NCBI GenBank assembly: GCA_964649215.1
Contig: CAZYOV010000001.1
Coordinates: 8,453-72,452 of the forward strand
Direction of reading: 5' to 3'
Length of the DNA: 64,000 nucleotides
Origin: an uncultured Dehalococcoidia bacterium
GTDB lineage: Bacteria > Chloroflexota > Dehalococcoidia > SM23-28-2 > RBG-16-64-32
Notes under the pieces: model-generated
The model's database searches: none
Told to the model about the DNA's origin: nothing
The model's input: the letters and a program-made list of their open reading frames with translations, nothing else
In this document: in pieces, positions 979-56,892 of the stretch
Position numbering within the stretch: the stretch's first letter is position 1
Layout of the letters: each line of letters begins with the position of its first letter
Translations under genes and position numbers: made by a program

Positions 979-3627
979 ATGTTTAAGCGCTTTAACGGCA
1001 ACGGCGGATCAAAGATCGCCAGACGAGGACTGAGCGCGGCGGATGACCTGACGAACGCCGTGCTGGCTGCGCTGTCCGATCAAGTCGCCTTCGTCGATCG
1101 GGACGGCAACATCACCGCTGTCAACGAGGCGTGGAAGAGCTTCGACTGCGGGTGCGGCGACCTCGCGCTCCAGCGCTCGGGCGTCGGGTCGAACTACCTT
1201 GAAGTCTGCCGGGCGGCCGAGCAAGCCGGGTCGGGCGGCCTCGAGGGAGCGATTCTCGGCCTTCAGGCAGTGCTCGAGGGATCGAGACCGCATTTCTCAC
1301 TGACCTACGCGTGTCAGTCACCGTCGGGACGGCAGTGGTTCCGGATGACGGTGTCGCCGATCGGGTCGCCACCCGATGGGGCCGTAATCTCGCACACGAA
1401 CGTTGCAGAGCCCACGCTGACCGGCGAAGCGCTGGATGTGGCAGCGATCGCTCCAGCCGAGACCGGCGAGCCTCTTCTTCGTGCCTTCACCGAGCACCTG
1501 GCGAAGACGATTGGAGCGCGCTTCGCGTTCCTGTCGGAGGTAGTTGATCAACGGGCCGGAAGGCTTCGGCTCATCGCCCTCTGGAGCGGCGAGGGGTTCG
1601 AGGAAAGCTTCGAGTACGACGTGGATGGGACGCCGTGCCGGGAGGTAATGCGCGGGGCCATCTGCCTGTTCCCCGCAGACGTACAGGAATATTTCCCCGA
1701 TGACGTCTGGCTCAAGGAGATCGCGGCGGAATGCTATCTAGCGGTCCCACTGTTCAGTTACGCCGGAGACATCATCGGACATCTGGGAGTTATTCACGAC
1801 CAGAGTCTCAACGACGTTTCATTCGCCGAACATGTGGTGCGGGCTGTCGCGGCGCGAGCGAGCGTAGAGCTGGAGCGCGTGCGTCTGGTGCGGACTCTTG
1901 AGAAAAGCGAGAGGACGGCCCGGGCGCTACTGAACGCCCCCGTGGACTCAGCGCTGTTGGTGGAACCCGACGGGACGATCTCTGACCTCAACGAAGTGGC
2001 CGCGATCAGGCTGGGCGTGACCGTGAAAGAGGCTATCGGCAAGAACGTATTTGACCTGTTCCCGCCTGGCGTGGCGGCGACGAGACGGGCCGCGATGGAA
2101 GAGGTCATGACCTCCCGCAGGCCACTGCGGGTGGAGGACGAGCGGGCGGGCATGCACTTTGAAACTTCCGCCTATCCCGTGCTCGATCCGCAGGGGGACG
2201 TCGAGAGAATAGCCGTCTTCGCCAGCAACGTCACGGCGCGACAAATCGCCGAGGAGGCGCTGGTGCAAAGCGAGCGGCGGATACGGCAGGTGACCGAGCA
2301 CATCAGCGAGATGGTCTGGCTAAGCGACCCCGAGAATGGCAAACTCCTGTACGTGAGCCCAGCTTACGAACAGATCTGGGGGCGCAGCTGCCAGAGCCTC
2401 TACGAAAATTTGCAGTCGTGGCTGGAAGCAGTTCACCCCGATGACTTGGAGCGTGTACAGGCGGCGGTGGGCGATGCGGAGCAAGTGTTTGACCTGGAGT
2501 ACCGGATAATCCGTCCAGACGGCGTCGTGCGCTGGGTCTGGGCCCGCAGCTTTCCTGTCCGCGAGGAGCCGGATGGCCGATCACGCCGGGCGGGCGTCGC
2601 CTCCGACATTACGGAGCGCAAGCTGGCGGAGGAGATACTTAGACGTCAAGCTCAACTGCTTGCCAATGTCAATGATGCAGTAGTAGCGTCCGATAGTAAT
2701 TTTATTTGGACATCCTGGAATCCTGCAGCAGAAAGAATGTACGGTTGGAAGGAAGATGAAGTCATCGGCCGACCATCGGGAGAGATACTTCATCCAGAAT
2801 TTATCGGCATCGATGCTGCTGAAGTACTCCGTATTCTGCGCGAAACCGGTCAGTGGCGTGGTGAAGTAATCCAGTACGACAAGGACGGCCGGAAGATGTA
2901 TACCGAGGCAAACGCTTTCGCATTGCGGGACGAGAATGGCGATATCACTGGTTATGTTAGTGCGGATCGCGACATCACGGAGCGCAAGCGGGCGGAGGAG
3001 GCCCTTCGTCAGAGCACCCAGAGGAACGCAACTCTGATAGACGCGATCCCGGACATGATGTTCACGATTGACCGACGGGGTCTCTACGTTGATTTCGTGC
3101 CTGCGAACGGGAGTGAGCCTTATGCCCCACCGGACCAGTTTCTCGGCAGGACGGTGTTTGAGGTGTTGCCGGCATCTCTTGCTCAAGACGTGATGCAGGG
3201 AGTCGAGCTCGCGCTGGAAACCGGCCGCCCCGAACGGCTGGAGTACGAGCTGGAGCTGGACGATGGTAGGCGCCAATATGAAGCCCGGATCCTCAAGTCG
3301 AAGGAAGACGAAGCTCTCGCCATCGTGCGTGATGTCACCGCACAAAAGCGCCAAGAGCGAGAAGAGGAGCTTCGCAGGGTCCGCGACGAGCTGGAAGGCA
3401 GAGTCGAAAAGGAGATGCTCGGCAAGAACCCCTACGGGCTCACCTTCCGTGAGTTCACAGTCCTGCACCTGGCGGCAAACGGCGCAGCCGACAAGGAGAT
3501 AGCGGACCAGCTGGGAATCAGCACCTTCACGGTCAGCAAGCACGTGGCGAACATCCTCGGTAAGATGGCCGCCTCTTCTCGCACCGAGGCCTGCGTCCGC
3601 GCCCTGCGGGAGGGCCTGCTGACCTAG
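979..3627 (+). CDS. Multi-PAS/GAF sensory transcriptional regulator, LuxR/GerE-type HTH
   Basis: 882 aa. N-terminal PAS, a GAF-like region, then further PAS modules separated by DITERK(L/R)AEE linkers. C-terminal LuxR HTH (EIADQLGISTFTVSKHVANILGKM). GGAGGGAG RBS upstream. Confidence 0.85.
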   Translation: MFKRFNGNGGSKIARRGLSAADDLTNAVLAALSDQVAFVDRDGNITAVNEAWKSFDCGCGDLALQRSGVGSNYLEVCRAAEQAGSGGLEGAILGLQAVLEGSRPHFSLTYACQSPSGRQWFRMTVSPIGSPPDGAVISHTNVAEPTLTGEALDVAAIAPAETGEPLLRAFTEHLAKTIGARFAFLSEVVDQRAGRLRLIALWSGEGFEESFEYDVDGTPCREVMRGAICLFPADVQEYFPDDVWLKEIAAECYLAVPLFSYAGDIIGHLGVIHDQSLNDVSFAEHVVRAVAARASVELERVRLVRTLEKSERTARALLNAPVDSALLVEPDGTISDLNEVAAIRLGVTVKEAIGKNVFDLFPPGVAATRRAAMEEVMTSRRPLRVEDERAGMHFETSAYPVLDPQGDVERIAVFASNVTARQIAEEALVQSERRIRQVTEHISEMVWLSDPENGKLLYVSPAYEQIWGRSCQSLYENLQSWLEAVHPDDLERVQAAVGDAEQVFDLEYRIIRPDGVVRWVWARSFPVREEPDGRSRRAGVASDITERKLAEEILRRQAQLLANVNDAVVASDSNFIWTSWNPAAERMYGWKEDEVIGRPSGEILHPEFIGIDAAEVLRILRETGQWRGEVIQYDKDGRKMYTEANAFALRDENGDITGYVSADRDITERKRAEEALRQSTQRNATLIDAIPDMMFTIDRRGLYVDFVPANGSEPYAPPDQFLGRTVFEVLPASLAQDVMQGVELALETGRPERLEYELELDDGRRQYEARILKSKEDEALAIVRDVTAQKRQEREEELRRVRDELEGRVEKEMLGKNPYGLTFREFTVLHLAANGAADKEIADQLGISTFTVSKHVANILGKMAASSRTEACVRALREGLLT

Positions 3628-3678: not shown

Positions 3679-6332
3679 ATGTGGAAAGGCTTCAGCGGCA
3701 CCGGCGGATCAAAGACCGCCAGACGTGGACTGAGCGCAACGGATGACCTGACGGACGCCGTGCTGGCTACGCTGTCCGATCACGTCGCCATAGTCGATCG
3801 GGACGGCAACATCATCGCTGTCAACGAGGCGTGGAAGAGCTTCGACTGCGAGTGCGGCGACTCCGCGTTCCACCGCTCGTGTGTCGGGTCGAACTACGTT
3901 GAAGTCTGGCGGGCGGCCGAACAATCCGGAGCGGGTGGTATCGAGGGAGCGATCCTCGGCCTTTGGGCGGTGCTCGAGGGATCGAGACCGCATTTCTCAC
4001 TGACCTACTTGTGTCACTCACCATCGGGACGGCAGTGGTTCCGGATGACGGCATCGCCGATCGGGTCGCCACCCGGTGGGGCCGTAATCTCGCACACGAG
4101 TGTGGCAGAGCCCACGCCGGTCGGCGAACCGCTGCATGCGGCAGCGATCGCTCCAGCGGAGACCGGCGAGCCTCTTCTTCATGTCTTAACCGAGAAACTG
4201 GCGAAGACGATTGGAGCGCGCTTCGCGTTCCTGTCGGAGGTAGTTGATCAACGGGCCGGAAGGCTTCGGCTCATCGCCCTCTGGAGCGGCGAGGGGTTCG
4301 AGGAAGGCTTCGAGTACGATGTGGATGGGACGCCGTGCCAAGAGGTATTGCGCGGGAACGTCGGCCTGTACCCTGCGGACGTGCAGGATTCTTTCCCGGA
4401 TGACGTCTGGCTCAAGGAGATCGCGGCGGAATGCTATCTAGCGGTCCCATTGTTTGGTCACGCCGGAGACGTCATCGGGCATGTGGGCGTGATTCACGAC
4501 CAGAGGCTCGAAGACGTCTCATTCGCCGAACATGTGCTGCGGGCTATCGCGGCGCGAGCGAGCGTAGAGCTGGAGCGCGTCCGTCTGGTGAGGGCTCTGG
4601 AGAAAAGCGAGAGGACGGCCCGAGCCCTCCTGAACGCCCCCGTGGACTCAGCGGTGTTGATGGAACCCGACGGTACGATCACTGACCTCAACGAAGTGGC
4701 CGCGGCCAGGCTGGGTGTAACCACGGAAGAGGCTGTGGGAAAGAACGTATTCGATCTGCTCCCGCCTGAAGTGGCGGCCACGAGACAGGCCGCGATGGAC
4801 AAGGCCATGACCTCCCGCAAGCCGCTGCGGCTGGAGGACGAGCGGGCCGGCATGAACTTTGAGAATTACGTCTATCCCATCCTCGATCTGGAGGGAAATG
4901 TCGATAAAGTAGCCGTTTCGCCAGCAACGTCACGGCGCGAAAGCTGGCGGAGGAGGAGCTGCAACGGAGTGAGAAGAGGTTCAGGTCGCTTGTCGACACC
5001 ATCAATCACGGAGTCGAGGAGATAGATACCTCCGGAGTGATAACGTTCGCTAACGCTGCGCTCCACCGGTTATACGAATATGGCGATGGTCAGCTCCTTG
5101 GAAAGTCCATTCTGGACTTTATCGCATCGGATGCCGAGAGAGAAACGCTAGCCGACTATCTGAAATATTTGGTGAAAGAACAGCCATCTCCTACTCCCTA
5201 CTTGGGACGGAAACGGACCAAGAGTGGAAATGTCATCGATGTCGAAATAGCCTGGGATTACAAGCGGGATGAGCACGGGCAGCCAACCGGATTTGTCGGG
5301 ATCGTTACGGACATCACCGAGCGCAAGCAGGCGGAGGAGGCGCTGCGGGAGAGCGAGGAGCGCTTCCGGGTGGCACTGTTAAATTCGCCTGTAGTCGTCT
5401 TTTGCCAGGACAGCGAGCTTCGCTACAGCTGGATCCACAATCCGGTTCCTGGCTTCAGCGCAGCAGATATCCTGGGCAAGACCGATGAAGACCTGCTTCC
5501 GCCTGAAGAAGCCAGCCGCCTGACGGCGATCAAACGACGAGTGCTGGATTCCGGCGTCAGTACGCGGCAGGAGATACACGCCACAGCCCGCGGAGAGGTA
5601 ATCTTTCACGACCTTACGGTCGAGCCGCTGCGCGACGCCACGGGCACCATAGTGGGGATCACGGGCGCTTCGTTCGATATCACAGAGCGCAAGCGGGCGG
5701 AGGAGGCGCTTCGTCAGAGCACCGAGAAGAACGCAACTCTGATAGGCGCGATCCCGGACATGATGTTCACGCTTGACAGAGGGGGTGTCTACGTTGATTC
5801 CGTGCCTGCTGACGGGCTTGAGCCCTATGCCCCACCAGACCAGTTTCTCGGCAGGACGGTGTTTGAGGTGATGCCGGCATCTCTTGCTCAAGACGTGATG
5901 CGGGGAGTCGAGCTCGCGCTGGACAGCGGCCGCCCGGAGCGGCTCGAGTATGAGCTGGAGCTGGACGATGGGAGGCGCCAATATGAAGCTCGGATCGTCA
6001 AGTCGAAGGAAGACGAAGTTCTCGCCATCGTGCGTGATGTCACAGCACAAAAGCGCCTAGAGCGAGAAGAGGAGCTTCGCAGGATCCGCGACGAGCTGGA
6101 AGGCAGAGTCGAACACCAGATGCTCGGCAAGAACCCCTACGGGCTCACCTTCCGTGAGTTCACAGTCCTGCACCTGGCGGCAAACGGCGCAGCCGACAAG
6201 GAGATAGCGGACCAGCTGGGAATCAGCACCTTCACGGTCAGCAAGCACGTGGCGAACATCCTCGGTAAGATGGCCGCCTCTTCTCGCACAGAGGCCTGCG
6301 TCCGTGCCCTGCGGGAGGGCATGCTGACCTAG
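3679..6332 (+). pseudogene. Tandem paralogue of the PAS/GAF-LuxR regulator, interrupted by a 1-nt deletion (or sequencing error)
   Basis: ORFs 3679-5025 and 5037-6332 are the N- and C-terminal parts of one gene. Copy 1 reads GCCGTCTTCGCC (AVFA) where copy 2 reads GCCGT-TTCGCC at 4912-4922. After the shift the other frame continues FASNVTARKLAEEELQRSEKRF... directly into ORF 5037. Confidence 0.65.
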
Positions 6333-6393: not shown

Positions 6394-6460
6394 TCACTAA
6401 GAATCGGTACGAACGTACTTAGGTTTCCCCATGCGCGGCGGCGGTGAGGACACGGATACT
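6394..6460 (+). promoter_or_regulatory. Conserved bipartite upstream element, copy A
   Basis: TCACTAAGAATCGGTACGAACGTACTTAGGTTTCCCCATGCG-N19-GATACT. Lies 120 nt upstream of CDS 6580. Confidence 0.7.
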
Positions 6461-8218: not shown

Positions 8219-8285
8219 TCACTAAGAATCGGTACGAACGTACTTAGGTTTCTCCATGCGCGACCGCGCTCGGCACCGTGATACT
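8219..8285 (+). promoter_or_regulatory. Conserved bipartite upstream element, copy B
   Basis: TCACTAAGAATCGGTACGAACGTACTTAGGTTTCTCCATGCG-N19-GATACT. Lies 47 nt upstream of CDS 8332 and is nearly identical to copy A. Confidence 0.7.
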
Positions 8286-9279: not shown

Positions 9280-9346
9280 GTAACGAAGAATCATTAGGAA
9301 CCTACCTAAGTTTCCCCATGCGGCGGCCCGCGCGTAAGACCACACT
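9280..9346 (+). promoter_or_regulatory. Conserved bipartite upstream element, copy C
   Basis: GTAACGAAGAATCATTAGGAACCTACCTAAGTTTCCCCATGCG-N18-CACACT. Lies 53 nt upstream of CDS 9399. Confidence 0.65.
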
Positions 9347-14090: not shown

Positions 14091-14158
14091 CTACCGAGAA
14101 TTCGGTACGAACGTACTTATCTCTAGCAATGCCCGGAGAGACCGCGGCGGGCTAAAGT
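14091..14158 (+). promoter_or_regulatory. Conserved bipartite upstream element, copy D (upstream of ECF sigma)
   Basis: CTACCGAGAATTCGGTACGAACGTACTTATCTCTAGCAATGCC-N19-TAAAGT. Lies 66 nt upstream of ORF 14224. Confidence 0.65.
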
Positions 14159-14223: not shown

Positions 14224-14859
14224 ATGACACGACTAACCGTGCAAGACAGGGCAGATTCAATGGATAGGACTCGTCATCTGCCGACGTCCAAGCGAGCAGC
14301 CGTCTCAATGACAGAAGGATGCAACGACGAGTCCCAACTGGTGGAGCGCGCTAAGGATATGGAGGAGGACGCCCTCGCCTCGCTCTACTCCATTTACTAC
14401 CCACGGATCTACAACTACGCGTTTTACCAGCTCGGGGACATCCAGGCAGCGGAAGATCTAGCGTCTGACGTTATGCTGAAGGTATTGGAGTCTATCCACG
14501 GGTACCGGTCCAAGGGACCGCCGTTTTCCGCCTGGGTTATCCGCATAGCGCGAAACAAGCTAATCGATCTCCATCGGCGGCGCAAGCGGAATGGAATGGT
14601 GAATCTGTGGGACCCGCCAGTAGCGATTGAATTGGCACCCGAGACTCTGGCGGAGCGGGCCCTTGACCGCGGACAGCTCCAGATCGCCCTAAAGTACCTT
14701 ACCGAAGTTCAGCGGCATGTCATCGTACTCCGGTTCATCGAGGGGTTCGATACTGCCACTGTCGCGCACACCCTGGGCCGAAGCGAGAGCGCCGTCAAGT
14801 CGGCGCAGCGCCGGGCGCTCAGGTCGCTCCGCGCCATCCTCGCGCGGAACGGGCGGTAA
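14224..14859 (+). CDS. ECF-type sigma-70 family RNA polymerase sigma factor
   Basis: Region 2 (IYNYAFYQLGDIQAAEDLASDVMLKVLESIHGY...FSAWVIRIARNKLIDLHRRR) and region 4 (QRHVIVLRFIEGFDTATVAHTLGRSESAVKSAQRRALRSLR). The start could be an internal Met (14260 or 14305). Confidence 0.85.
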   Translation: MTRLTVQDRADSMDRTRHLPTSKRAAVSMTEGCNDESQLVERAKDMEEDALASLYSIYYPRIYNYAFYQLGDIQAAEDLASDVMLKVLESIHGYRSKGPPFSAWVIRIARNKLIDLHRRRKRNGMVNLWDPPVAIELAPETLAERALDRGQLQIALKYLTEVQRHVIVLRFIEGFDTATVAHTLGRSESAVKSAQRRALRSLRAILARNGR

Positions 14860-14931: not shown

Positions 14932-14999
14932 CTACCGAGAATTCATTAGCAATATAACGATCCTTAGCCATGCGTTGACCTCTTAAGACTCCCGATACT
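14932..14999 (+). promoter_or_regulatory. Conserved bipartite upstream element, copy E (degenerate dyad)
   Basis: CTACCGAGAATTCATTAGCAATATAACGATCCTTAGCCATGCG-N19-GATACT. Lies 170 nt upstream of CDS 15169. Confidence 0.55.
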
Positions 15000-24499: not shown

Positions 24500-24542
24500 C
24501 GGCCCAGCATGCAAAGCGATTAGCTTGGGCGGAGAGCGCACA

Positions 24543-26560: not shown

Positions 26561-26668
26561 CCCCATGCAGGGAAAGACGCTGGCTCGGCAGATGCAAGCG
26601 ATAGTAGTGCCGCCGCACGGGACACTGACGGCATGCGCCGAGCCTCCTTCGATAGAGGCTGAAGAGCC

Positions 26669-28270: not shown

Positions 28271-28338
28271 CTACCAAGAAATGATTACAAATGTACTTAT
28301 GATTCGCGATGGCCCGCGTCTCATCTTGGCCCATCATT
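28271..28338 (+). promoter_or_regulatory. Conserved bipartite upstream element, copy F
   Basis: CTACCAAGAAATGATTACAAATGTACTTATGATTCGCGATGGC-N18-CATCAT. Lies ~51 nt upstream of CDS 28389. Confidence 0.6.
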
Positions 28339-32465: not shown

Positions 32466-32490
32466 GCTGTGAGCCTTCAGACGAAGCGAC

Positions 32491-34830: not shown

Positions 34831-34898
34831 ATAACGAGAAATCGTTAGCAACGTACTTATGTTTTGCCATGCGCCAAGAAGCTAAGGCGCAGCATACT
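34831..34898 (+). promoter_or_regulatory. Conserved bipartite upstream element, copy G
   Basis: ATAACGAGAAATCGTTAGCAACGTACTTATGTTTTGCCATGCG-N19-CATACT. Lies 118 nt upstream of the ATG at 35016. Confidence 0.65.
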
Positions 34899-35015
34899 TT
34901 GGGGGAGCGTCCCTCTAGCGCGGGTCGGAGAGGTTCTCATCGACGGGACGCGATTGCAGCCTCGCCTGCGCGTGCGATCGATTGGCGTCAACCAGGGCAT
35001 CAGGGAGGAGATGTA

Positions 35016-35466: not shown

Positions 35467-35534
35467 CTACTGATAAATCGTAATGAACGTACATAAATTT
35501 TGCCATGTGCTCGCCGATGGGGTCGGTGCACACT
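35467..35534 (+). promoter_or_regulatory. Conserved bipartite upstream element, copy H
   Basis: CTACTGATAAATCGTAATGAACGTACATAAATTTTGCCATGTG-N19-CACACT. Lies 38 nt upstream of CDS 35572. Confidence 0.65.
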
Positions 35535-36998: not shown

Positions 36999-37066
36999 AG
37001 TATCTCAGACCGCAACAGACCCACGCAGTGCAGAGACTAGGTACATTCGTAATGATTTCTCGTTAC
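36999..37066 (-). promoter_or_regulatory. Conserved bipartite upstream element, copy J
   Basis: Minus strand GTAACGAGAAATCATTACGAATGTACCTAGTCTCTGCACTGCG-N19-GATACT. Lies 51 nt upstream of the ATG at 36948. Confidence 0.65.
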
Positions 37067-37256
37067 TTCTCACGAACCGGGTCAGCACTACAATCGCTGA
37101 GGGCACAACGTGACGGTGAGCCGCTTCGGCCGGCGAGTCGGGCTGCGGGTTGCGCGTCTCTAGGGCGCGCTCCCCGTATTTGGCAAGGCCCGAAAGTCGG
37201 TCATCGCGAACGACGGACCTTTGATCAACTTGCGACCGTATCCGGAAGGAGATATC

Positions 37257-38291
37257 GTGACCCAAGAAGCAAACCAGACGCGACGACGGCTCGCCCGCCG
37301 GCACTTCATCGGCGGAGGGTTCGCCACGCTGGCGCTGGCGGGAGCTGGCCTTGGACTAGCTGCCTGTGGCGATGACAACGAAAACGCCGCTGCTACGGCA
37401 GCGGCTTCCCCGACACCGGCCGCGGGATTCGCTCCCGGCCCGAAGCCGGAAGGCAAGGTCGCTAGCGCCCGGGATGCGACCCTGCCCCCACTTCAGCCTT
37501 CTCCCCTTCAGCTCACCTATCGGGCCACCGACGCCACGGTCGAGATAGCCGCCGGCGTTCGCTACAACGCCTGGACCTTCGAGGACACCGTCCCGGCGCC
37601 TGTTCTCCACGTAAAGCAGGGCGATACGGTGCAGTTCACCTTAGTCAATGAGGCCAGCGCAGGCCATTCCATCGACTTCCATGCCGCACGCACCCCCTGG
37701 GACAAGAACTACATAACGATAGTGCCCGGAGATTCCTTGAGTTTCGACTGGACGGCGGATTTCCCCGGCGTGTACGTCTACCACTGTGGCACTGCGCCGG
37801 TCCTCCATCACATCGCCAACGGAATGTACGGTGTGATCGTTGTGGATCCGGAGACGCCTCTACCACCGGCACGCGAATACTGGCTTATGCAGAGCGAGTT
37901 CTATGCCAAGGCCGGGGAGGGCGATACCTGGGACGGGGACATGGATAAAATGCTGGCTCCGAGGCCGGACATCCTTGCCTTCAACGGTGTCGCATTTCAG
38001 TATCGAGACAACCCCTTGCCCGCTTCTGCCGGAGAGAAAATCCGGCTCTATGTAGCTAACATTGGTCCCACCCTGTTCTCCGCGTTCCACGTCATCGGCG
38101 CTCTTTTCGACGTCGCCTACGTGGACGGCAACCCCGCCAACCCTCTGGTAGGATTACAGACCCACACGATACCGCCTGGCGGCGGCGCCACCTTCGAACT
38201 CACCATACCGGACCCGGGACTCTACCCTATAGTCACCCACACCTTCGCCTACACAGAGCTGGGCGCGGTAGGCTTGCTGGAGGTGACCTAG
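37257..38291 (+). CDS. nirK: Copper-containing nitrite reductase (NirK-like), Tat-lipoprotein signal
   Basis: GTG at 37257 after GGAAGGAGA. Tat motif RRRLARRHF plus lipobox LGLAAC. Cu-site motifs HSIDFHAA and YVYHCGTAPVLHHIANGMYG. Confidence 0.8.
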   Translation: MTQEANQTRRRLARRHFIGGGFATLALAGAGLGLAACGDDNENAAATAAASPTPAAGFAPGPKPEGKVASARDATLPPLQPSPLQLTYRATDATVEIAAGVRYNAWTFEDTVPAPVLHVKQGDTVQFTLVNEASAGHSIDFHAARTPWDKNYITIVPGDSLSFDWTADFPGVYVYHCGTAPVLHHIANGMYGVIVVDPETPLPPAREYWLMQSEFYAKAGEGDTWDGDMDKMLAPRPDILAFNGVAFQYRDNPLPASAGEKIRLYVANIGPTLFSAFHVIGALFDVAYVDGNPANPLVGLQTHTIPPGGGATFELTIPDPGLYPIVTHTFAYTELGAVGLLEVT

Positions 38292-38376: not shown

Positions 38377-38443
38377 CTACCTAGCAATCGTTACGAATGT
38401 ACTTAGTCTCTGCCATGTGCCCGGCTCACTCGCGTATGAAAAT
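38377..38443 (+). promoter_or_regulatory. Conserved bipartite upstream element, copy I
   Basis: CTACCTAGCAATCGTTACGAATGTACTTAGTCTCTGCCATGTG-N18-GAAAAT. Lies 47 nt upstream of CDS 38490. Confidence 0.65.
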
Positions 38444-38489: not shown

Positions 38490-39980
38490 ATGAGTAACGA
38501 CAAGAAGCCAAACATCCTCGTGCTCTGGGGCGACGACATCGGCCTCACTAACCTCAGCTGTTACGGCGATGGCGTCATGGGCTATCGGACGCCGAATATC
38601 GACCGCCTCGCTGAGGAGGGAATACGCTTCACGGACTACTACGGGGAGCAAAGCTGCACCGCAGGCCGCTCGGCGTTCATTACAGGCCAGAGCGTCTTCC
38701 GAACGGGCCTCAGCAAAGTGGGAATGCCAGGTGCCGACTTGGGACTGAGCGCCGAGGACCCGACGATCGCTGAACTCCTCAAACCACTGGGCTACGCAAC
38801 AGGCCAGTTCGGCAAAAACCACCTCGGTGACAAGGACGAGTTCCTACCCAGCAACCACGGATTCGACGAGTTCTTCGGGAACCTCTACCACCTCAACGCC
38901 GAGGAGGAGCCAGAGCTGCCGGACTACCCGACAGAGAAGGACTTTCCGGACTTCCGGAAGAACTTCGGCCCACGAGGAGTCATACGGAGCTACGCCGACG
39001 GCCGGATCGAGGACACGGGACCTCTCACCAAGAAGCGCATGGAGACCTGCGATGACGAGTTCCGAGATGCGGCGCTGGATTTCATCGACCGGAAGACGAG
39101 CGAAGGAACTCCCTGGTTCCTTTGGCTCAACACCACGCACATGCATCTCCGGACTCACCCCAAGCCTGAAAGCGTCGGCCAAGCCGGCCGCTGGCAGTCC
39201 GAGTACCACGACACGATGATAGACCACGACAAAGTCATTGGCGCCCTGCTGGACAAGCTGGATGAGCTGGGCATCGCGGACAACACGATCGTCATGTACA
39301 GCACGGACAACGGGCCGCACGCCAATAGCTGGCCCGACGGCGCGACGACGTCGTTCCGTAGCGAGAAGGATACGAACTGGGAGGGCGCTTTCCGCGTGCC
39401 GGCGATGATCCGCTGGCCGGGACACATCCCGGCCGGCGTGGTCACGAACGACATCGTCAGCGCCATGGACATGCTCCCGACCTTCCTCGCCGCGGCCGGG
39501 GAGCCCGACATTAAGGAGAAGCTCCTCACGGGCCACCAGGCGGGCAGCAAGACGTTCAAGGTCCACCTCGATGGGTACAACATGCTCCCGTTCCTGACGA
39601 AGGAAGGAGAGCGCAGCCCCCGCGTCGAGTTCTTCTACTTCTCGGACGATGGCGACGTGGTCGCGCTCCGTTACGATAACTGGAAGCTCGTCTTCATGGA
39701 GCAGCGCGCGCGAGGCACGCTGGGGTTATGGGCAGAGCCGTTCACGACGCTGCGCCTACCGAAATTATTCAACCTGCGCACTGATCCGTTCGAATTCGCC
39801 GACATCACATCGAATACCTACTGGGACTGGGTGATCGACCACGTATTCCTGATGGTGCCCGCACAGACCCTTGTCGGCGAATTTCTTGCCAGCTTCAAGG
39901 AGTTCCCGCCACGCCAGAAAGCCGCCAGCTTCACGATCGACCAAGTGATGGAAAAGCTGACTCAAGGCATCAGCTCCTAA
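38490..39980 (+). CDS. Arylsulfatase (Cys-type, CTAGR variant)
   Basis: 496 aa with NILVLWGDDIGLTNLSCYG...QSCTAGRSAFITGQ...STDNGPH. Confidence 0.9.
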   Translation: MSNDKKPNILVLWGDDIGLTNLSCYGDGVMGYRTPNIDRLAEEGIRFTDYYGEQSCTAGRSAFITGQSVFRTGLSKVGMPGADLGLSAEDPTIAELLKPLGYATGQFGKNHLGDKDEFLPSNHGFDEFFGNLYHLNAEEEPELPDYPTEKDFPDFRKNFGPRGVIRSYADGRIEDTGPLTKKRMETCDDEFRDAALDFIDRKTSEGTPWFLWLNTTHMHLRTHPKPESVGQAGRWQSEYHDTMIDHDKVIGALLDKLDELGIADNTIVMYSTDNGPHANSWPDGATTSFRSEKDTNWEGAFRVPAMIRWPGHIPAGVVTNDIVSAMDMLPTFLAAAGEPDIKEKLLTGHQAGSKTFKVHLDGYNMLPFLTKEGERSPRVEFFYFSDDGDVVALRYDNWKLVFMEQRARGTLGLWAEPFTTLRLPKLFNLRTDPFEFADITSNTYWDWVIDHVFLMVPAQTLVGEFLASFKEFPPRQKAASFTIDQVMEKLTQGISS

Positions 39981-39996
39981 TAGGAAGCGGGACTGG

Positions 39997-40980
39997 ATGG
40001 AGCAGACCATGGAGGAGGCGCCGTCAAGAGCACCGTATCCCGACATGGTCTGGATCCCAGGCGGCACCTTTCGCATGGGCTCTAATGACCACTACACGGA
40101 GGAGGCCCCCGTCCACAGCGTGGCCGTCGACGGCTTCTGGATGGACCGCACCACGGTGACGAATAGGGACTTTCAGAAGTTCGTGGACGCGACTGGGTAC
40201 GTAACGGTCGCTGAGCGGTCACCAAACCCGGAGGACCATCCCGGCGCGCCAGCTGAGAACCTGGTGGCGGGCTCGCTCGCGTTCAGGAAGACGCCCGGCC
40301 CTGTAGATCTTCGCCACCTGAGCCAGTGGTGGGTCTGGACTCCTGGCGCGAGCTGGCGTCATCCTGAGGGTCCGCAAAGCTCTATCGCTGGTCGGATGGG
40401 TCACCCGGTCGTGCATGTCGCCTGCGATGACGCACAGGCCTACGCGATCTGGACGGGGAAGGCCTTAGCTACCGAAGCGGAGTGGGAGCGCGCCGCCCGA
40501 GGCGGGCTGGAAGGCGCTGAGTTCGTCTGGGGTGATGAGCGGGTACCGGACGGCAAGCCTCCGGCCAACTGGTGGCAGGGCGAGTTTCCCTGGCAGAACA
40601 GCTTGGACGACGGGTTCGAGGGCTCCGCGCCGGTGGGCTCTTTTCCGCCGAACGGGTTCGGCCTCTACGACATGGCCGGCAACGTGTGGGAGTGGACGAG
40701 CGGCTGGTACACGACCCGGCATCCAGAGGACGCCGATGACCCGTGCTGCGTGCCGAGCAATCCGCGAGGGGGAATGGAGGACGAGAGCTACGACCCAGCG
40801 CAACCACAGTTCAAGATTCCCCGGAAGGTGATCAAGGGTGGCTCGTTCCTCTGCGCCGACAACTATTGCCAGCGGTACAGACCGGCGGCGCGGCGCCCGC
40901 AGATGATCGACACCGGCATGAGCCACATCGGCTTTCGATGTATCGTTCGGCCGGACTCGGCAGCCGATGTCTCGCGCTGA
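39997..40980 (+). CDS. Formylglycine-generating enzyme (FGE/SUMF1 family)
   Basis: 327 aa, paralogue of 27127-28113 (MVWIPGGTFRMGS...KGGSFLCADNYCQRYRPAARRPQMIDTGMSHIGFRC). Starts 17 nt after the sulfatase stop. Confidence 0.9.
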   Translation: MEQTMEEAPSRAPYPDMVWIPGGTFRMGSNDHYTEEAPVHSVAVDGFWMDRTTVTNRDFQKFVDATGYVTVAERSPNPEDHPGAPAENLVAGSLAFRKTPGPVDLRHLSQWWVWTPGASWRHPEGPQSSIAGRMGHPVVHVACDDAQAYAIWTGKALATEAEWERAARGGLEGAEFVWGDERVPDGKPPANWWQGEFPWQNSLDDGFEGSAPVGSFPPNGFGLYDMAGNVWEWTSGWYTTRHPEDADDPCCVPSNPRGGMEDESYDPAQPQFKIPRKVIKGGSFLCADNYCQRYRPAARRPQMIDTGMSHIGFRCIVRPDSAADVSR

Positions 40981-43608: not shown

Positions 43609-44262
43609 TTAATCTAGAAGCCCGAGCCTGGCCGCGTATGCGGCCGCCCCAGCCCGTCGGGAGAGCCCGAGCTTGCTGAGGATGTGGGCCACATGATTGC
43701 GGGCCGTATGCTCGCTGATGAAGAGCGCCTCCGCTATCTCCTTGTTGGTGTGCCCATCGGCGACGAGTCGCAGGACTTCCTTCTCCCTAACGGAAAGCGG
43801 ATCGTCGGCCTCGGGGTGGGCCGACGATAGCTCCACCAGCTTCTGGAGCACCGGCTCCGTGACCGAGGTGTCGAGCAGGGACTCGCCTCGACCGACGGTA
43901 TGGAGGGCTTCGATGAGACGACCGCGGCCCACGTTCTTGATGAGGTAGCCGGAGGCGCCGGCGAGGAGGGCCGCAAGCACGGTTTCCCGTTCGCTATAGG
44001 AGGAGAACATGAGCACTCGGGTATCGGGTAGAGAGCTCCGAATCTCGCGGCAGGCTTGGACACCACCTGTGTCCTCGCCTTCCCCAAGACGCACGTCCAA
44101 GAGCACGACATCCGGCTTCAGAGCGATTGCCCTCTCTACAGCCTCCTCCGCTCCGCCAGCCTCCCCCACCACTTCAATCGTGTCGTCACCGTCCAGCACG
44201 GCTCGAAGACCAGCTCGAACTACCTCATGGTCATCGACCACCAGCACCCTCAGCGCCATCAC
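43609..44262 (-). CDS. NarL/FixJ-family response regulator (REC plus LuxR HTH)
   Basis: 217 aa with VLVVDDHEVVRAGL...DVVLLDVRL and EKEVLRLVADGHTNKEIAEALFISEHTARNHVAHILSKLG. Confidence 0.9.
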   Translation of the reverse strand: MMALRVLVVDDHEVVRAGLRAVLDGDDTIEVVGEAGGAEEAVERAIALKPDVVLLDVRLGEGEDTGGVQACREIRSSLPDTRVLMFSSYSERETVLAALLAGASGYLIKNVGRGRLIEALHTVGRGESLLDTSVTEPVLQKLVELSSAHPEADDPLSVREKEVLRLVADGHTNKEIAEALFISEHTARNHVAHILSKLGLSRRAGAAAYAARLGLLD

Positions 44263-45631: not shown

Positions 45632-46093
45632 TTAGCTCCTGACTCCTGCAAGAAGCCGCTCCCTGTGCAGGTATTTGAAGGGGAGCCAGCCCTTCAGGCT
45701 TCCACGCTCCCAGAAAACCCTAACCCACTGCTCGCCATTGACCGTCGTCGGGCCTTCGACTATCTGAACCTTGGCGCCGGTCTTGAGTGCGCCCAGGGTC
45801 CACCCACCAGGTCCGGGGGTCTGCGTGACCCTGACGCCGGCCCGAGCATCCACGACCGTCAGTTCCGAGACGGGGTACGCCGACTGAGGTGAATCTCCTC
45901 CGTCTCCTCGCGATACGGCGAGGGCTGCAACGAGCGCTAGCGCGAGTGAGATCGCCAACGCGCCGACCAGGAGTAACGACCCGGAGATCCCTGAACGGAG
46001 GGATTTGGTCCTCAGGAGGGAACCGCCGGCTGGTGAGGGCGATGGGTCAGCACCACCAATTCCATCTGCTCTCGTCCCGGAAACGATCTGCAT
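45632..46093 (-). CDS. Membrane-anchored SH3-like domain protein
   Basis: 153 aa. One TM and a C-terminal SH3b-like segment (LKTGAKVQIVEGPTTVNGEQWVRVFWERGSLKGWLPFKYL). Confidence 0.5.
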   Translation of the reverse strand: MQIVSGTRADGIGGADPSPSPAGGSLLRTKSLRSGISGSLLLVGALAISLALALVAALAVSRGDGGDSPQSAYPVSELTVVDARAGVRVTQTPGPGGWTLGALKTGAKVQIVEGPTTVNGEQWVRVFWERGSLKGWLPFKYLHRERLLAGVRS

Positions 46094-46335
46094 TCTACCC
46101 TCGCGAACCCTGGCGGCTGTTGACCTCGAAGCCGTCTGTCCACCAGGGCTGTCGCGACAACGGCGGCTGCGGCCGGTGTCCCCGCAGGCGGCACTCCCAG
46201 GGCATCACGACACGACGTGTCCAGCGGCCACTCATCAAGTGTGTCAGTTCGCAGATGGTCTGCCACAGGCGAGGATTAGTGATATTCCTACTTATTGTTC
46301 GGTAGCAGAACAGTCGGAGGGCCATTATTAGAGGA

Positions 46336-47592: not shown

Positions 47593-47739
47593 TCATCCCT
47601 CGTCAGGGTCCGTTTCGCGTCGCTGCTGAAGCCGCTCGCGTATGACCCGAATGGTCTCGCTGCCGCGTTGCGGGGCGGCCGGCGAGCCAAGACTTGCGCC
47701 CAACGCCATGCCAAGCATCAGACCAATGACGAACCGCAT
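47593..47739 (-). CDS. YtxH-like small membrane protein (48 aa, not in ORF track)
   Basis: AGGAGGCAGATT-ATG gives MRFVIGLMLGMALGASLGSPAAPQRGSETIRVIRERLQQRRETDPDEG*. The plus-strand track ORF 47642-47866 is its antisense shadow. Confidence 0.55.
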   Translation of the reverse strand: MRFVIGLMLGMALGASLGSPAAPQRGSETIRVIRERLQQRRETDPDEG

Positions 47740-47787: not shown

Positions 47788-47855
47788 AGTATCTCAGGCC
47801 GCGACGGCCCCGCGCATTGCAGAAACTAGGTACGTTCGTAACGATTTCTCGTTAC
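47788..47855 (-). promoter_or_regulatory. Conserved bipartite upstream element, copy K (closest to consensus)
   Basis: Minus strand GTAACGAGAAATCGTTACGAACGTACCTAGTTTCTGCAATGCG-N19-GATACT. Lies 49 nt upstream of the ATG at 47739. Confidence 0.7.
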
Positions 47856-50355: not shown

Positions 50356-50577
50356 TCAGCCGAGCAGCTTCGTCTTCTGCCTGGCGAACTCCTCGTCGGT
50401 GATGACCCCCTCATTGCGAAGGTCGGCCAGCTTCCTGAGCTCAACCACTCGAACAATCGCAGAAAAGTTGCTCCACATGACCAGTTGAACTAGCGGCGTG
50501 AGCAATAACAGCAGGAGCGGTACGACAACGAAGAATATGATCATGACCGACCAGAAGGTCGAGAGGTCAAGGAACAT
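50356..50577 (-). CDS. Small membrane protein with SHOCT domain
   Basis: 73 aa. TM FWSVMIIFFVVVPLLLLLLTPLV and SHOCT tail LRKLADLRNEGVITDEEFARQKTKLLG. RBS TAGGAGGA. Confidence 0.7.
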   Translation of the reverse strand: MFLDLSTFWSVMIIFFVVVPLLLLLLTPLVQLVMWSNFSAIVRVVELRKLADLRNEGVITDEEFARQKTKLLG

Positions 50578-50635: not shown

Positions 50636-50702
50636 AGTGTGCCACCCTCGTAATGTCTTCGCATGGCAGAGGCTAATGATTTTCGTACCTATTTCTAGGT
50701 AG
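50636..50702 (-). promoter_or_regulatory. Conserved bipartite upstream element, copy L
   Basis: Minus strand CTACCTAGAAATAGGTACGAAAATCATTAGCCTCTGCCATGCG-N18-CACACT. Lies 59 nt upstream of the ATG at 50577. Confidence 0.65.
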
Positions 50703-52224: not shown

Positions 52225-52752
52225 TCAGGCGTCATCGGCTCCTCGGTTAGCGTCGCCGGTTGCGGCTGCGTCCTCGATCTGCGCGGCTTCTTTCGCGCTG
52301 AAACCGTGTCGGAGGAATTTTCCCGGGTAAGTCTCCATGGTCTCCACGATCAGCTCCACAAACTGCGGCGCGGCCAGCGCCACCACGGCGGCGTTCCCCG
52401 GCTTCAGGCTGCTGCCAAGATCCTTCATCGCTCCGGTCTTGATGCCCGTGTCACGCAGCCTGCCCCAGGCACCGCCAATCAGCCCGCCGGCGAGCGCCGA
52501 GGCGATCAGGCTAGGCGGGAAGAACAGGCCCATGACGCCGGCGATCACGGCGCCGCGCCGGGCGCCCTTGCCTGTGGTGACTTCCCGCGTCTCCTTGATG
52601 TGCAGCTTACCGTCAGCGTCCTTCGTCACCATCGCCGCGTCGGCCAGTGTGATGGTGGAGGCGCGATGCATCCTCTGGAGCGCGTCGAGGATTGTCTTGG
52701 CGGCGTCCTCATCCTTATAGATGGAGGCCATTAGCTCAAGCTGGTTGCCCAT
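52225..52752 (-). CDS. DUF1269-like membrane protein (subtype 2)
   Basis: 175 aa with MASIYKDEDAAKTILDAL...GARRGAVIAGVMGLFFPPSLIASALAGGLIGGAWG. RBS TAGGAG. Confidence 0.75.
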   Translation of the reverse strand: MGNQLELMASIYKDEDAAKTILDALQRMHRASTITLADAAMVTKDADGKLHIKETREVTTGKGARRGAVIAGVMGLFFPPSLIASALAGGLIGGAWGRLRDTGIKTGAMKDLGSSLKPGNAAVVALAAPQFVELIVETMETYPGKFLRHGFSAKEAAQIEDAAATGDANRGADDA

Positions 52753-52871: not shown

Positions 52872-52939
52872 ATTGTCGCGTGCCGTAGGAGCCTGGCACA
52901 CGGCAGAGATTAGGTATTCCCGTAACGATTTCTCAGTAG
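52872..52939 (-). promoter_or_regulatory. Conserved bipartite upstream element, copy M
   Basis: Minus strand CTACTGAGAAATCGTTACGGGAATACCTAATCTCTGCCGTGTG-N19-GACAAT. Lies 120 nt upstream of the ATG at 52752. Confidence 0.6.
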
Positions 52940-53943: not shown

Positions 53944-54417
53944 TCATCGCTCCTTCCTGTGCGAAACGCGCACCGATCGGGGTCTTCCATGTGTGTTTCT
54001 TCGTCTCTGCTGACCGCCCTTGCTTTCAGACAGAAGTGCCGCCAGCATCCTGATGAGGTCCCAGGGGTCGAAGGGCTTGCCCAGGAAATGAGTGCCAAGA
54101 GGTCCGTACCGGCTGGTCGCCTCGTCACGGTCGAGGGCAGATATGACCACCCAGACAGGGCGATCGAGCTCGTTGGCCCGGCGGAGCCGGTCGATGACCG
54201 CTTTGCCGAGGCCGTCCGACAAGCCGAGGTCGAGGACCACCGCGTCGGTGGCTCCTTGGCCCTTGAGGATGTTCAACGCCTCTGCGCCGGCGGCTACCAC
54301 AGCGATATCAAACCCGGCGGCACCCAGGGAGAATCGGAGCATCTTGGCTATAGCCGGGTCGTCCTCAACCACCAGGACCCTCGGTGGCCGGTCGCGGACC
54401 GTCTGCTTGGCGCTCAT
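53944..54417 (-). CDS. Stand-alone receiver (REC) domain response regulator
   Basis: 157 aa with RVLVVEDDPAIAKMLRFSL...DAVVLDLGLSDG...FLGKPF. RBS GGAGGTGAG. Confidence 0.8.
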   Translation of the reverse strand: MSAKQTVRDRPPRVLVVEDDPAIAKMLRFSLGAAGFDIAVVAAGAEALNILKGQGATDAVVLDLGLSDGLGKAVIDRLRRANELDRPVWVVISALDRDEATSRYGPLGTHFLGKPFDPWDLIRMLAALLSESKGGQQRRRNTHGRPRSVRVSHRKER

Positions 54418-54567: not shown

Positions 54568-56892
54568 CTAGGACCGGGGCTTCGGCATGCGGTAGCCGAC
54601 CTGCGGCTCCGTCAAGATGAATTTGGGGTGTCTTGCGTCGTCACCCAGTTTTCTGCGCAGGTTGCGAATGAAGGAACGGAGCAGACCGGTCTCGCCTGAG
54701 TATTCGGACCCCCAGACGCGTTGAAGTATCTGGTCGTGGGTGAGGACCCGGCCTGCGTGGGTCGCCAGTTCATACAACAGCTTGTACTCGGTAGCAGAAA
54801 GGGAGACCGTCTGGTTTCCCACGGTGACGCCCCGCTCCGCGAAGTTGATGGTCAGGTCATCCAGCACGAAGGGTGCCCGCGCCTCCAACACGTCGGGCAG
54901 CAGTCGCCTCCGGAGGACCGCCTCTATTCGAGCCAGCAGGTCCGCGGGCGAGAAGGGCTTCGTGATGTAGTCGTCGGCCCCCATCTTTAGGGCGCGGACC
55001 GTGTCCGCTTCCTTGTCGCTGGCCGTGAGAAAGATGACCGGCACCCCGGAGAGCTCCCGGATCCGCTTCAGCAGCTCGAACCCATCGGTGCCGGGGAGAA
55101 TGAGGTCCAGCAGGATCAGGTCCGGCTCCTCCGTCTCCACCAGCTCGACCACGTTGGACGGGTCACTGGTCACGATAGGCTGATATCCTGCCTCGTCCAG
55201 CGACCGCTGGAGGTAGCGGAGGATCTGAGGTTCGTCATCCACCGCCAGGATCCGAGTCCGCTCGCCGGCCCGGCTGACCTTCCCCAGGTGCGCCGTCCTG
55301 CGCGCAGTCTCCGATAGCGAGGCAGCGCTCGTCTCCGCCACCGGTAAGGTGAAGCTGAACGTAGCCCCGCGACCCTCGCCGGGGCTCTCGGCCCAGATGC
55401 GCCCACCGTGGGCCTCTACAATCCCCTTAGAGATGGCGAGTCCCAGGCCGGTGCCCGAAAGCCCAGTCTCCTCGTGCACGCGCGAGAACTTCGTGAATAG
55501 GTGAGGCTGCTTCTCTTCGGCTATCCCCCGGCCGTGATCCCGGACGTGTATCGTCATTTCAGTGGCATCCTGCTCCACCTCTATGTTTATCGGCGCCGTT
55601 GGTGGCGAGAGTTTGGACGCGTTACTCAGGAGATTCGATAGGACCCGAGTGATTCTGCGCCGGTCCGCCTTGACCGCGGGAAGGTCGTCCTGCAGATTCA
55701 GTTGGAGCTCCTGGGGGCTGCCGCTGCGGACGAAGGTGGTCTGGACCTCCTCAATGACCGCGCGCAGATCCATCGCCTCTGGGTTGACCGATAGGGAGCC
55801 GGCCTCGATTCGGGTCATGTCCAGTAGGTTGTCCACCATGTCCCGAAGCCGGTCGGCCTGCTCGTCGATGATCTGAAACAGCTCCTGCGACTGCGCAGCA
55901 TCGAGGGGCTCCCGGGCGCCCAGCGCCATCGCCGCCGACCCCTTGATTGCCGTCAGGGGCGTCTTTAGCTCGTGGCTCACCAGGCCCAGGAACTCGCTTC
56001 GGAGCCTTTCGATCTCCTCCAGCGGCGTGATGTCTTGGATAACCACTATAGCCCCCACTATCTGATCAGTTGCGGAATATACAGGGGCGGCGTTAACGAG
56101 GGTAGGCACGTTACGTCCGTCTGGCAACTCGAAGATGATCTCCTCAGCCTGCACGATTTCACCCTCGCGCAGCGCGCGTTGGAGAGGAAGCTCCTCTGGC
56201 CTGTACACACTCCCGTCTGGCCGCTGATACACTGCCGCCTGCTCATAGCGTTCCAGCCGGTCGTCCGGCTGGGATGTGAGGCCAAGTATGCGCTCCGCCT
56301 CCCGGTTTACGACGAGGACGCGACCGCCAGCGTCCGCCACGAAGATACCCGCAGGAGACGCGTCCACCAGAGTCGCAAGACGCCGTCGCTCCTCCTCAAC
56401 CGCATCTTCGGCCCGCTTGCGCTTGGTGATATCGGTGGCGATGCCACAGACAGCGTAGGGAGCCCCCGCAGAATCGTGGAGCGGGAACTTAAGCGAGATG
56501 TACGTGTGCACTCCGTCGTCCTGAGGGACAAGCTCCTCCCACTCCAAAGCCGTTCCTGTTCGGAGTACCTCTTGGTCGTTGGCGCGGAATGCGTCAGCCA
56601 CCTCCTTCGGGAAGATGTCGTGGTCGGTCCTGCCTTCGACCTGCTCTCTGCTAACGTGGAATAGGGTTTCGTAGCGACGGTTTACGAGAAGATACCGACC
56701 CTGAGTGTCTTTGACGAAGATGACGGCCGTGGTGTTGTCCAGAATGGCGCGGAGCTGTTCATCTTTCTTAAGGGCCTCTTCGGCCCGCTTGGGCTCGCTG
56801 ATCGCGACCTCGCCCTCAGCGCGCGCGGACCTCTCGCGACGCCTTTTGCGTTCGCTGCTTGTTCCTCTAGTAGTTCGCTTGTCGCTGCTCAC
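54568..56892 (-). CDS. Single-polypeptide two-component protein: PAS-PAS-HisKA-HATPase-REC-OmpR/PhoB wHTH
   Basis: 774 aa, no TM. Two PAS modules, H-box SEFLGLVSHELKTPLTAIKG, an ATPase domain (GTGLGLAISKGIVEAHGGRIW), REC (RILAVDDEPQILRYL...DLILLDLILPGTDG) and a C-terminal winged helix (LSATEYKLLYELATHAGRVLTHDQILQRVWG...VGYRM). Confidence 0.85.
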   Translation of the reverse strand: MSSDKRTTRGTSSERKRRRERSARAEGEVAISEPKRAEEALKKDEQLRAILDNTTAVIFVKDTQGRYLLVNRRYETLFHVSREQVEGRTDHDIFPKEVADAFRANDQEVLRTGTALEWEELVPQDDGVHTYISLKFPLHDSAGAPYAVCGIATDITKRKRAEDAVEEERRRLATLVDASPAGIFVADAGGRVLVVNREAERILGLTSQPDDRLERYEQAAVYQRPDGSVYRPEELPLQRALREGEIVQAEEIIFELPDGRNVPTLVNAAPVYSATDQIVGAIVVIQDITPLEEIERLRSEFLGLVSHELKTPLTAIKGSAAMALGAREPLDAAQSQELFQIIDEQADRLRDMVDNLLDMTRIEAGSLSVNPEAMDLRAVIEEVQTTFVRSGSPQELQLNLQDDLPAVKADRRRITRVLSNLLSNASKLSPPTAPINIEVEQDATEMTIHVRDHGRGIAEEKQPHLFTKFSRVHEETGLSGTGLGLAISKGIVEAHGGRIWAESPGEGRGATFSFTLPVAETSAASLSETARRTAHLGKVSRAGERTRILAVDDEPQILRYLQRSLDEAGYQPIVTSDPSNVVELVETEEPDLILLDLILPGTDGFELLKRIRELSGVPVIFLTASDKEADTVRALKMGADDYITKPFSPADLLARIEAVLRRRLLPDVLEARAPFVLDDLTINFAERGVTVGNQTVSLSATEYKLLYELATHAGRVLTHDQILQRVWGSEYSGETGLLRSFIRNLRRKLGDDARHPKFILTEPQVGYRMPKPRS

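Follow-up and report, generated by a model that had tools for sequence, protein, structure and literature searches.

The inverted repeats of a conserved intergenic block in an uncultured Dehalococcoidia bacterium are probably part of a DNA operator rather than of a leader RNA

Introduction

What reads the inverted repeats that stand in front of many genes in a 64,000-nucleotide stretch of an uncultured Dehalococcoidia genome (positions 8,453 to 72,452 of contig CAZYOV010000001.1; hereafter the window): a folded RNA or a DNA-binding protein? The repeats belong to a conserved block that recurs in the window as copies A to M. In copy K, on the minus strand, the first repeat reads GTAACGA-GAAA-TCGTTAC (47855-47838) and overlaps a second dyad, TACGAACGTA (47840-47831), of the form TACG-AA-CGTA. 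A preliminary description of these copies took paired changes among their repeats as a sign of selection on base-pairing, and considered both a GNRA-capped hairpin in a 5' leader RNA and a tandem operator bound by protein dimers. This compensatory substitution was the source of the finding's interest, and it was lost in the larger sample of copies analysed here. From the comparison of sequences we conclude that the inverted repeats are most probably the operator part of a DNA block upstream of promoters, likely the site of a LuxR-type regulator, and not an RNA structure.

Results

Copies of the block in the window and in related loci

A profile built from the five closest matches (nhmmer) found exactly 13 strong copies in the window, where none would be expected by chance and shuffled sequence yielded 0; a weak fourteenth copy (E=5e-4) was recovered later. 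All 14 are intergenic, lie upstream of a gene and run in the same direction as that gene (Table 1). Re-reading of the sequence confirmed the repeat arms quoted previously for G, D, L and K, the variants of the second dyad in A-D, F and I-K, the 11-bp centre-to-centre spacing of the two dyads and, as sequence, the examples of CCAT facing ATGG in L, H and G. The earlier ranking of the first stem stood for C, which is near-perfect with 5/6 pairs, and needed amendment elsewhere: I also has 5/6 pairs, J and M have 4/6, and H has 3/6 plus one G·T.

We enlarged the sample with a degenerate pattern in which both dyads were left as N and only positions outside the dyads were fixed. The pattern matched 4 loci in species-representative genomes (two Chloroflexota metagenome-assembled genomes, B8D1T2 and B80T3L11) and 33 metagenome contigs. 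A profile scan of the window and these 37 related loci gave 96 copies, many of them in flanks that the pattern had not selected; 79 are distinct and 77 of these have complete flanks. The copies align without gaps, and orthologous block positions are kept across genomes whose neighbouring proteins share 50-84% identity. Pairing and covariation were tested on 73-77 distinct copies, and 74 sequences were given to RNAalifold.

The arms of the repeats vary independently

Across the seven pairs of the first stem, 68.3% of cells can pair, compared with 71.7±1.3% when the letters of the 3' side are shuffled, and 500/500 shuffles equalled or exceeded the observed value. Both the number of cells changed on the two sides (25 observed, 34 expected) and the covariation score (0.085, with 0.116 expected) fall below expectation, and mutual information with average product correction (MI-APC) places the stem-1 pairs at ranks 459-960 among the 1035 column pairs, in the lower half. 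Perfect 6/6 stems occur in 16/77 copies (21%); random reassignment of entire arms yields 12.5±2.8 (P=0.14). The second dyad is paired in 71.2% of cells versus 69.4% after shuffling, a value that 59/500 shuffles reach and that is not significant. Neither outcome changed when the set was reduced to 46, 33 or 27 representatives, and RNAalifold predicted 0 pairs on the alignment. The larger set thus holds no supported covariation for either dyad, and gives no support to the claim that paired changes reveal selection on base-pairing.

The orthologous groups give the same picture. Of the changes in stem pairs, 11 affect one side only; the single two-sided change is non-compensatory. Orthologues of K itself carry TCATTA, which places a C·A mismatch in the stem. 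The commonest arm class, TCACTA/TCGGTA (14 copies), forms only 3/6 pairs yet is stable among orthologues, and TAACGA/TAGGTA is another non-complementary combination that is stably kept. Because covariation is absent and non-complementary arms are retained in orthologues, selection acts on the sequence of each arm and not on pairing between the arms.

Other properties expected of a hairpin were no better represented. Only 35/77 loops (45%) conform to GNRA; the remaining 55% include AGAA (18), GAAT (6) and TAAA (3), so that a GNRA cap is not conserved in the block. The additional pairing of CCAT with an ATGG 3' of the hexamer described below proved to be at background, ATGG being found there in 10/77 copies and in 8 and 5 in control windows. 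The minimum-free-energy fold of K includes the hairpin, with a fold z-score of only -1.47. No match to Rfam 15 was found at gathering scores in the whole window, nor at E≤1 around copy K. A long-range helix between columns 10-14 and 31-35 beat all 500 shuffles on the full set; we rejected it as a family effect, the signal coming from a large orthologue family of the A/B type, with P=0.05-0.15 for 33 or 27 representatives and an equally high score after a slide of one column.

The dyad symmetry of the consensus is real. The first stem is 68% paired in register versus 24-38% with the partner slid by 1-3 columns, and the second dyad 71% versus 18-33% when slid; across all dyad tests the slid values span 18-39%. 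Because the consensus is dyad-symmetric yet its arms vary independently, we take the arms to be half-sites that are read by protein. A few paralogous copies, each perfectly palindromic yet different, can mimic covariation, and such pseudo-covariation arises by chance from the independently varying half-sites of a protein operator.

Three half-sites in a fixed arrangement

A matrix made from both arms of the first repeat reads T-A-[A/C]-[C/T]-[G/T]-A. It recovered exactly one further half-site, in forward orientation at columns 29-34 (TACTTA/TACCTA), which scored 7.4 bits on average; the two arms averaged 9.0 and 9.6, and all remaining offsets fell below -1. The half-sites are thus arranged forward (columns 7-12), reverse (columns 17-22) and forward (columns 29-34). 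The first two half-sites make up a 16-bp frame, T-N4-A-N4-T-N4-A, with consensus TAACGA-N4-TCGTTA, in which T1, A6, T11 and A16 are invariant. Frames of this type are recognised by dimers of NarL/LuxR (GerE) helix-turn-helix domains. Half-sites 2 and 3 meet tail to tail, and the second dyad is more plausibly this junction than an independent 4-2-4 site; the half-site 2/3 dyad extends to the invariant T17 and A34, again without covariation. The matrix gave -10 at columns 39-44, and a fourth half-site there, inverted and completing a second full 16-bp site over the -35 region, was rejected; direct repeats of 10, 11 or 13 bp of the OmpR/PhoB type were looked for by eye, none being convincing.

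The block lies at a fixed distance from a -10-like hexamer

By information content, conservation is confined to columns 6-49, followed by 18 GC-rich positions at background and then by peaks at A69, A71 and T73. G+C content is 38% in the block, 63-70% in its flanks and 62% in the genome. These downstream peaks belong to a -10-like hexamer that starts 19±1 bp 3' of the block in 72/77 copies (columns 67-69), most often as GATACT (28), CACACT (13) or CATACT (5). In a fixed frame, the second position is A in 60/77 and the sixth is T in 58/77. Over the 95 nt preceding the block, no offset showed a comparable -10-like signature.

With the hexamer set as -12 to -7, the block extends from -73 to -32, the dyads are centred at -65.5 and -54.5, and the half-sites occupy -73 to -68 (forward), -63 to -58 (reverse) and -51 to -46 (forward). 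The CCATGCG box falls at -38 to -32, and the spacer between block and hexamer is GC-rich and non-conserved. The corresponding box of K, CAATGCG(C), may be a weak -35 element (ATGCGC, with an 18-bp spacer) or the -35 element of another sigma factor. Exactly 7 nt past the hexamer, at alignment column 80 (47781 in K), 38/77 copies have a G, as expected for a purine at a transcription start. The 5' untranslated regions that would follow from the predicted starts are about 30-110 nt long and end at a GGAGG-type ribosome-binding site.

Because the hexamer stands at a fixed distance in 72/77 copies and nothing comparable is found upstream, the dyads would lie outside the predicted transcript, whose start is placed about 50 nt downstream of them. 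By the criterion that the preliminary description itself had set, a start at the predicted place would tell against the leader RNA.

A PAS-LuxR gene accompanies the block

Two tandem genes for LuxR-type regulators with several PAS domains (PAS-LuxR) precede copy A. Members of this family are about 760-1010 aa long here, with 3-5 PAS domains and a GerE helix-turn-helix. The nearest structures to the DNA-binding domain of the first regulator are LiaR and VraR (E=1e-10), followed by GerE, DosR and NarL. In at least 12 of the loci found with the element, the gene for an orthologue (50-84% identity) has its end 50-75 nt upstream of a copy. As a check free of this selection, we searched with the PAS-LuxR protein itself, which gave about a dozen orthologue clusters, and examined the contigs of six. 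A copy of the block adjoins the gene in 6/6: it lies directly downstream of the gene and in front of a DUF1269 gene in 5, and divergently upstream in 1. From this linkage, the multi-PAS LuxR-type one-component regulator (979-3627 and its paralogue) would be the most likely binder of the block.

The second gene of the tandem, 3679-6332, is split. Its frames 3679-5025 and 5037-6332 align to the N- and C-terminal parts of single PAS-LuxR orthologues, and the interruption, by a frameshift or stop, marks either a pseudogene, a gene that is truly split or a fault of the assembly.

A gene for an extracytoplasmic function (ECF) sigma factor is also linked to the block. It is present in 8 related loci, and copy D precedes it in the window and in those related loci that cover its upstream region, the orthologues in L019, L027, L030 and L034 having a D-type block upstream.

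Discussion

Comparison with known operators

The 16-bp frame recognised by LiaR is T(X)4C(X)4G(X)4A, and the LiaR tetramer has a footprint of about 43 bp in front of envelope-stress operons (PMC4482077). The block resembles this LiaR/VraR operator in having a 16-bp frame whose bases 1, 6, 11 and 16 are fixed, in its length of 42 bp next to the protected 43 bp or so, which implies more than one dimer, in its place upstream of promoters of small envelope-stress genes, and in the DNA-binding domain of the linked regulator. It differs in that A and T take the place of C and G as the inner fixed bases, that the candidate is a one-component multi-PAS protein and not a phosphorylated response regulator, and that the host belongs to the Chloroflexota and not the Firmicutes.

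In Streptomyces, PAS-LuxR regulators (PimM, PteF and others) bind a 16-bp palindrome, CTVGGGAWWTCCCBAG, in the -35 region (PMC9774167). Common to both systems are a PAS sensor joined to a LuxR helix-turn-helix, a 16-bp palindrome-like site near the core promoter and a regulator gene beside its targets. The consensus of the block, TAACGAGAAATCGTTA, shares with the PimM-type box only its length and A/T centre; its full dyad is centred near -65 and not on the -35 region, and the genes behind it encode stress-type membrane proteins and not polyketide functions. The Streptomyces proteins are also shorter, with about 190 aa and one PAS domain. The block is therefore a member neither of the PimM box family, by its sequence, nor of the LiaR box family, by its fixed bases and type of regulator. 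By analogy, it would work like a NarL/LuxR-family operator array before an activator-dependent promoter.

A literature search with the core 12-mer of the block found no paper, and nothing usable was found on DUF1269 stress promoters or the BldN consensus. The regulon motif is new and the kind of mechanism familiar, so far confined to a narrow lineage of uncultured Chloroflexota.

Alternative explanations

A structured 5' leader RNA, with the block inside the transcript and a GNRA-capped hairpin, aided by pairings such as CCAU/AUGG, serving as a cis-regulatory element, would account for the perfect 6-7-bp hairpins of K, G, D and L, which differ in sequence and carry GAAA loops in three copies and GAAT in D, for the hairpin in the predicted fold of K and for one promoter-like match upstream of K. 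Like known GNRA-capped leader hairpins, a minority of copies could form a stem of 6-7 bp with a GAAA loop. They differ from these in showing no covariation and no consensus fold, in the majority of loops that are not GNRA and in having no Rfam match; pairing in the first stem is at or below the shuffled level, perfect stems and ATGG are no commoner than chance or background, the orthologues of K break its stem, and the sole conserved promoter signal lies downstream of the dyads. We consider the leader RNA highly unlikely. Still less credible, and hardly to be entertained, is a dispersed repeat of the repetitive extragenic palindromic (REP) or miniature inverted-repeat transposable element (MITE) kind that has no regulatory role, or a DNA cruciform. 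The many copies with short inverted repeats would fit it, but every copy is intergenic, co-oriented with the downstream gene and at a fixed distance from the -10-like hexamer, and the orthologous positions have been kept while the flanking proteins diverged. Stable cruciform extrusion would need longer and better-matched arms than these, which measure 6-7 bp and are perfect in only 21% of copies.

Two further possibilities leave the block as DNA and change the protein that reads it. The block could be mainly the promoter of the ECF sigma factor encoded at 14224-14859, its sub-blocks being the -35 and -10 elements of an autoregulated, sigma-driven regulon that would need no LuxR-type activator. 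ECF sigma promoters have AAC at -35 and CGT at -10, and positive autoregulation is a hallmark of these factors (PMC8103513). The ECF gene carries the block upstream, as noted above, the regulon would consist of small envelope and stress proteins, and the CCATGCG box with the odd hexamer (G or C first) could be a non-canonical -35/-10 pair. Copy K, which reads GTAAC-N16-CGTAC, fits the ECF-type AAC-N16-CGT, yet both elements occur together in only 6/77 copies (AAC at columns 8-10 in 28/77, CGT at columns 27-29 in 19/77). The 42 conserved bp also far exceed the contacts of a sigma factor, and the A-N3-T of the hexamer is typical of housekeeping-type -10 elements. We regard this explanation as unlikely; it would leave the RNA model no better off, and a further LuxR-type site could still lie upstream.

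Quite unlikely, too, is that the dyads are the operator of a different protein or of a repressor, whether the NarL-type response regulator (43609-44262), the kinase with OmpR-type output (54568-56892) or a factor encoded elsewhere. Both named regulators are encoded in the window, the response regulator and its kinase are also present in the element-bearing loci L010 and L012, and activation and repression are indistinguishable from sequence. Linkage of this kind, however, amounts to 2 loci, compared with at least 12 for PAS-LuxR plus the 6/6 contigs retrieved by protein, and OmpR-type proteins bind direct repeats, which the block does not have. Sites centred near -65 and -54, upstream of a weak -35 element, have a placement typical of activators, which counts against a repressor.

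An operator bound by protein dimers, by comparison, is supported by the dyad-symmetric consensus, the independent half-sites, the rigid spacing to the hexamer and the linked LuxR-type gene. Several observations weigh against it. A scan with a strict sigma-70 consensus made no call on the downstream hexamer, the ATGCGC candidate for a -35 element retaining only TG, and gave one promoter-like match, upstream of K alone (47910-47883). If that promoter were real, the block of K would fall in leader RNA; the match is not conserved in other copies and we treated it as chance. The first position of the hexamer is mostly G or C and not the housekeeping T, and the -35 region (aTGcgc) is poor, so the sigma factor that reads the promoter is uncertain. 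The distances do not fit the spacings of sigma-B, sigma-F or sigma-28, as judged by reasoning. The conserved stretch from -45 to -32 (…TCTGCCATGCG) is unexplained by the half-sites; it could represent another contact with protein, or a -35 element of non-canonical type. The linkage to PAS-LuxR could be plain conserved synteny in a narrow clade, and the window encodes the NarL-type and OmpR-output regulators named above, the former, with its kinase, recurring in two loci that bear the element.

A possible regulon

In the mechanism that we propose for the operator, dimers of the PAS-LuxR protein, or a tetramer or higher oligomer, would bind to the half-sites along a single helix face, in front of the weak -35 element, and recruit RNA polymerase. 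The island of small membrane and stress proteins (DUF1269, PLDc_N, YtxH-like, SHOCT) and the ECF sigma factor would thereby be turned on, the trigger being whatever the PAS domains sense. A broader proposal, which we put forward tentatively as possible rather than probable, is that an undescribed regulon exists in uncultured marine Chloroflexota in which PAS-LuxR, acting on a three-half-site operator (-73 to -46) with an unusual -35 box, CCATGCG, activates an island of small membrane and stress proteins, dozens in number, together with the ECF sigma factor, in a two-tier cascade from PAS-LuxR to ECF. The 42-bp motif, with a named candidate regulator and a candidate sigma factor, offers a handle on the co-regulation of this dense island of small membrane proteins (DUF1269, PLDc_N, SHOCT and YtxH-like), which have no assigned function, in uncultured Chloroflexota. 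The general significance is modest, since the kind of mechanism is well known.

Features of the window and related loci

Downstream of the copies lie genes for DUF1269 proteins, for small membrane proteins of the PLDc_N, SHOCT and YtxH-like kinds, for a methyltransferase and a sulfatase, and for the ECF sigma factor. Coordinates are collected in Table 1.

Table 1. Block copies, promoter elements of copy K, candidate regulators and other features, with positions in the window unless a related locus is named.
Feature	Coordinates	Strand	Description
Copy K	47813..47854	-	42-bp conserved AT-rich block TAACGAGAAATCGTTACGAACGTACCTAGTTTCTGCAATGCG, about -73 to -32 of the predicted promoter
Half-site 1 of K, TAACGA	47849..47854	-	forward; left arm of first repeat; end T and A invariant in 77/77
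Half-site 2 of K, TCGTTA	47839..47844	-	reverse; right arm of first repeat
Half-site 3 of K, TACCTA	47827..47832	-	forward; tail-to-tail with half-site 2, 6-bp spacer
CAATGCG(C) box of K	47812..47819	-	-35 region; CCATGCG in most copies; T and G in 74/77
-10-like hexamer of K, GATACT	47788..47793	-	
Predicted transcription start of K	47781	-	G, 7 nt past hexamer; predicted 5' untranslated region of about 42 nt to ATG at 47739
Gene downstream of copy K	47593..47739	-	48-aa protein, weak YtxH-like match; preceded by GGAGG ribosome-binding site
Copy A	6394..6435	+	62 nt past PAS-LuxR genes; methyltransferase gene downstream
Copy B	8219..8260	+	upstream of DUF1269 gene 8332-8838
Copy C	9281..9322	+	upstream of gene for small PLDc_N membrane protein, 9399-9671
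Copy D	14092..14133	+	upstream of ECF sigma factor gene 14224-14859
Copy E	14933..14974	+	immediately past sigma factor gene
Copy F	28272..28313	+	upstream of PLDc_N (28389-28625) and DUF1269 (28706-29206) genes
Copy G	34832..34873	+	
Copy H	35468..35509	+	upstream of gene for 143-aa secreted or lipoprotein-like protein, 35572-36003
Copy I	37024..37065	-	paralogue of K; upstream of second small YtxH-like gene
Copy J	38378..38419	+	upstream of sulfatase gene 38490-39980
Copy L	50660..50701	-	upstream of gene for small SHOCT-domain membrane protein, 50356-50577
Copy M	52897..52938	-	upstream of DUF1269 gene 52225-52752
Weak fourteenth copy	46263..46304	-	upstream of 153-aa gene with no family match, 45635-46093; same arrangement in locus L022
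Candidate cognate regulator	979..3627	+	882 aa, several PAS domains and LuxR/GerE-type DNA-binding domain
Second PAS-LuxR paralogue	3679..6332	+	split into 3679-5025 and 5037-6332; copy A 62 nt past stop codon
ECF sigma factor	14224..14859	+	BldN-like, below family cut-off; copy D 90 nt upstream
Sulfatases	16567-18924, 19533-21176, 22136-24499, 38490-39980		
Sulfatase maturase, radical-SAM/SPASM	24525-25889		
Sulfatase maturases, FGE-type	27127-28113, 39997-40980		
Divergent block pair, L005	1299/1512	-/+	
Divergent block pair, L021	878/1089	-/+	
Divergent block pair, L025	1540/1670	-/+	
Divergent block pair, L033	5282/5387	-/+	
Divergent block pair, L017	1727/1903	-/+	

In related loci, some blocks stand back to back, 105-215 bp apart, in front of divergent genes, and a regulator could serve both promoters of such a pair simultaneously. 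The weak fourteenth copy of the window is degenerate, its hexamer region reading ACACACTT. The two YtxH-like paralogues on the minus strand, starting at 36948 and 47739 (53 and 48 aa), hardly differ in their leaders and blocks (I and K), and the pair looks like a recent duplication of promoter and gene together. A mechanically called open reading frame of 148 aa, 34869-35315(+), begins at an ATG within the CCATGCG box of copy G; it is very likely an artefact, and the true start is probably later, at 35016.

Gene order is kept between 346-14046 of the window and locus L042, although the PAS-LuxR protein of L042 is only 51% identical. The shared order is PLDc_N/SHOCT, PAS-LuxR, DUF1269, PLDc_N, an unknown protein of about 475-490 aa, a 234-aa unknown protein, an ion channel and DUF389; relative to L042, the window has inserts past copy A, namely the second PAS-LuxR paralogue, the methyltransferase and a CMD-family protein. 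The hybrid kinase at 54568-56892(-) has 774 aa with two PAS domains, HisKA, HATPase, a receiver and an OmpR-type DNA-binding domain, a whole two-component pathway in one protein, and is adjoined by a lone receiver-domain protein (53944-54417).

A dense sulfatase island occupies 16567-28113 and 38490-40980 of the window, with two SulP sulfate permeases (30768-34269) between the two stretches. Among the four sulfatases, the one at 38490 alone has a copy of the block (J) upstream. Copper-handling genes lie at the edge of the island: a multicopper oxidase at 37221-38291(+) and a P-type ATPase at 60171-62885(+) with an N-terminal cupredoxin-like domain and an HMA domain.

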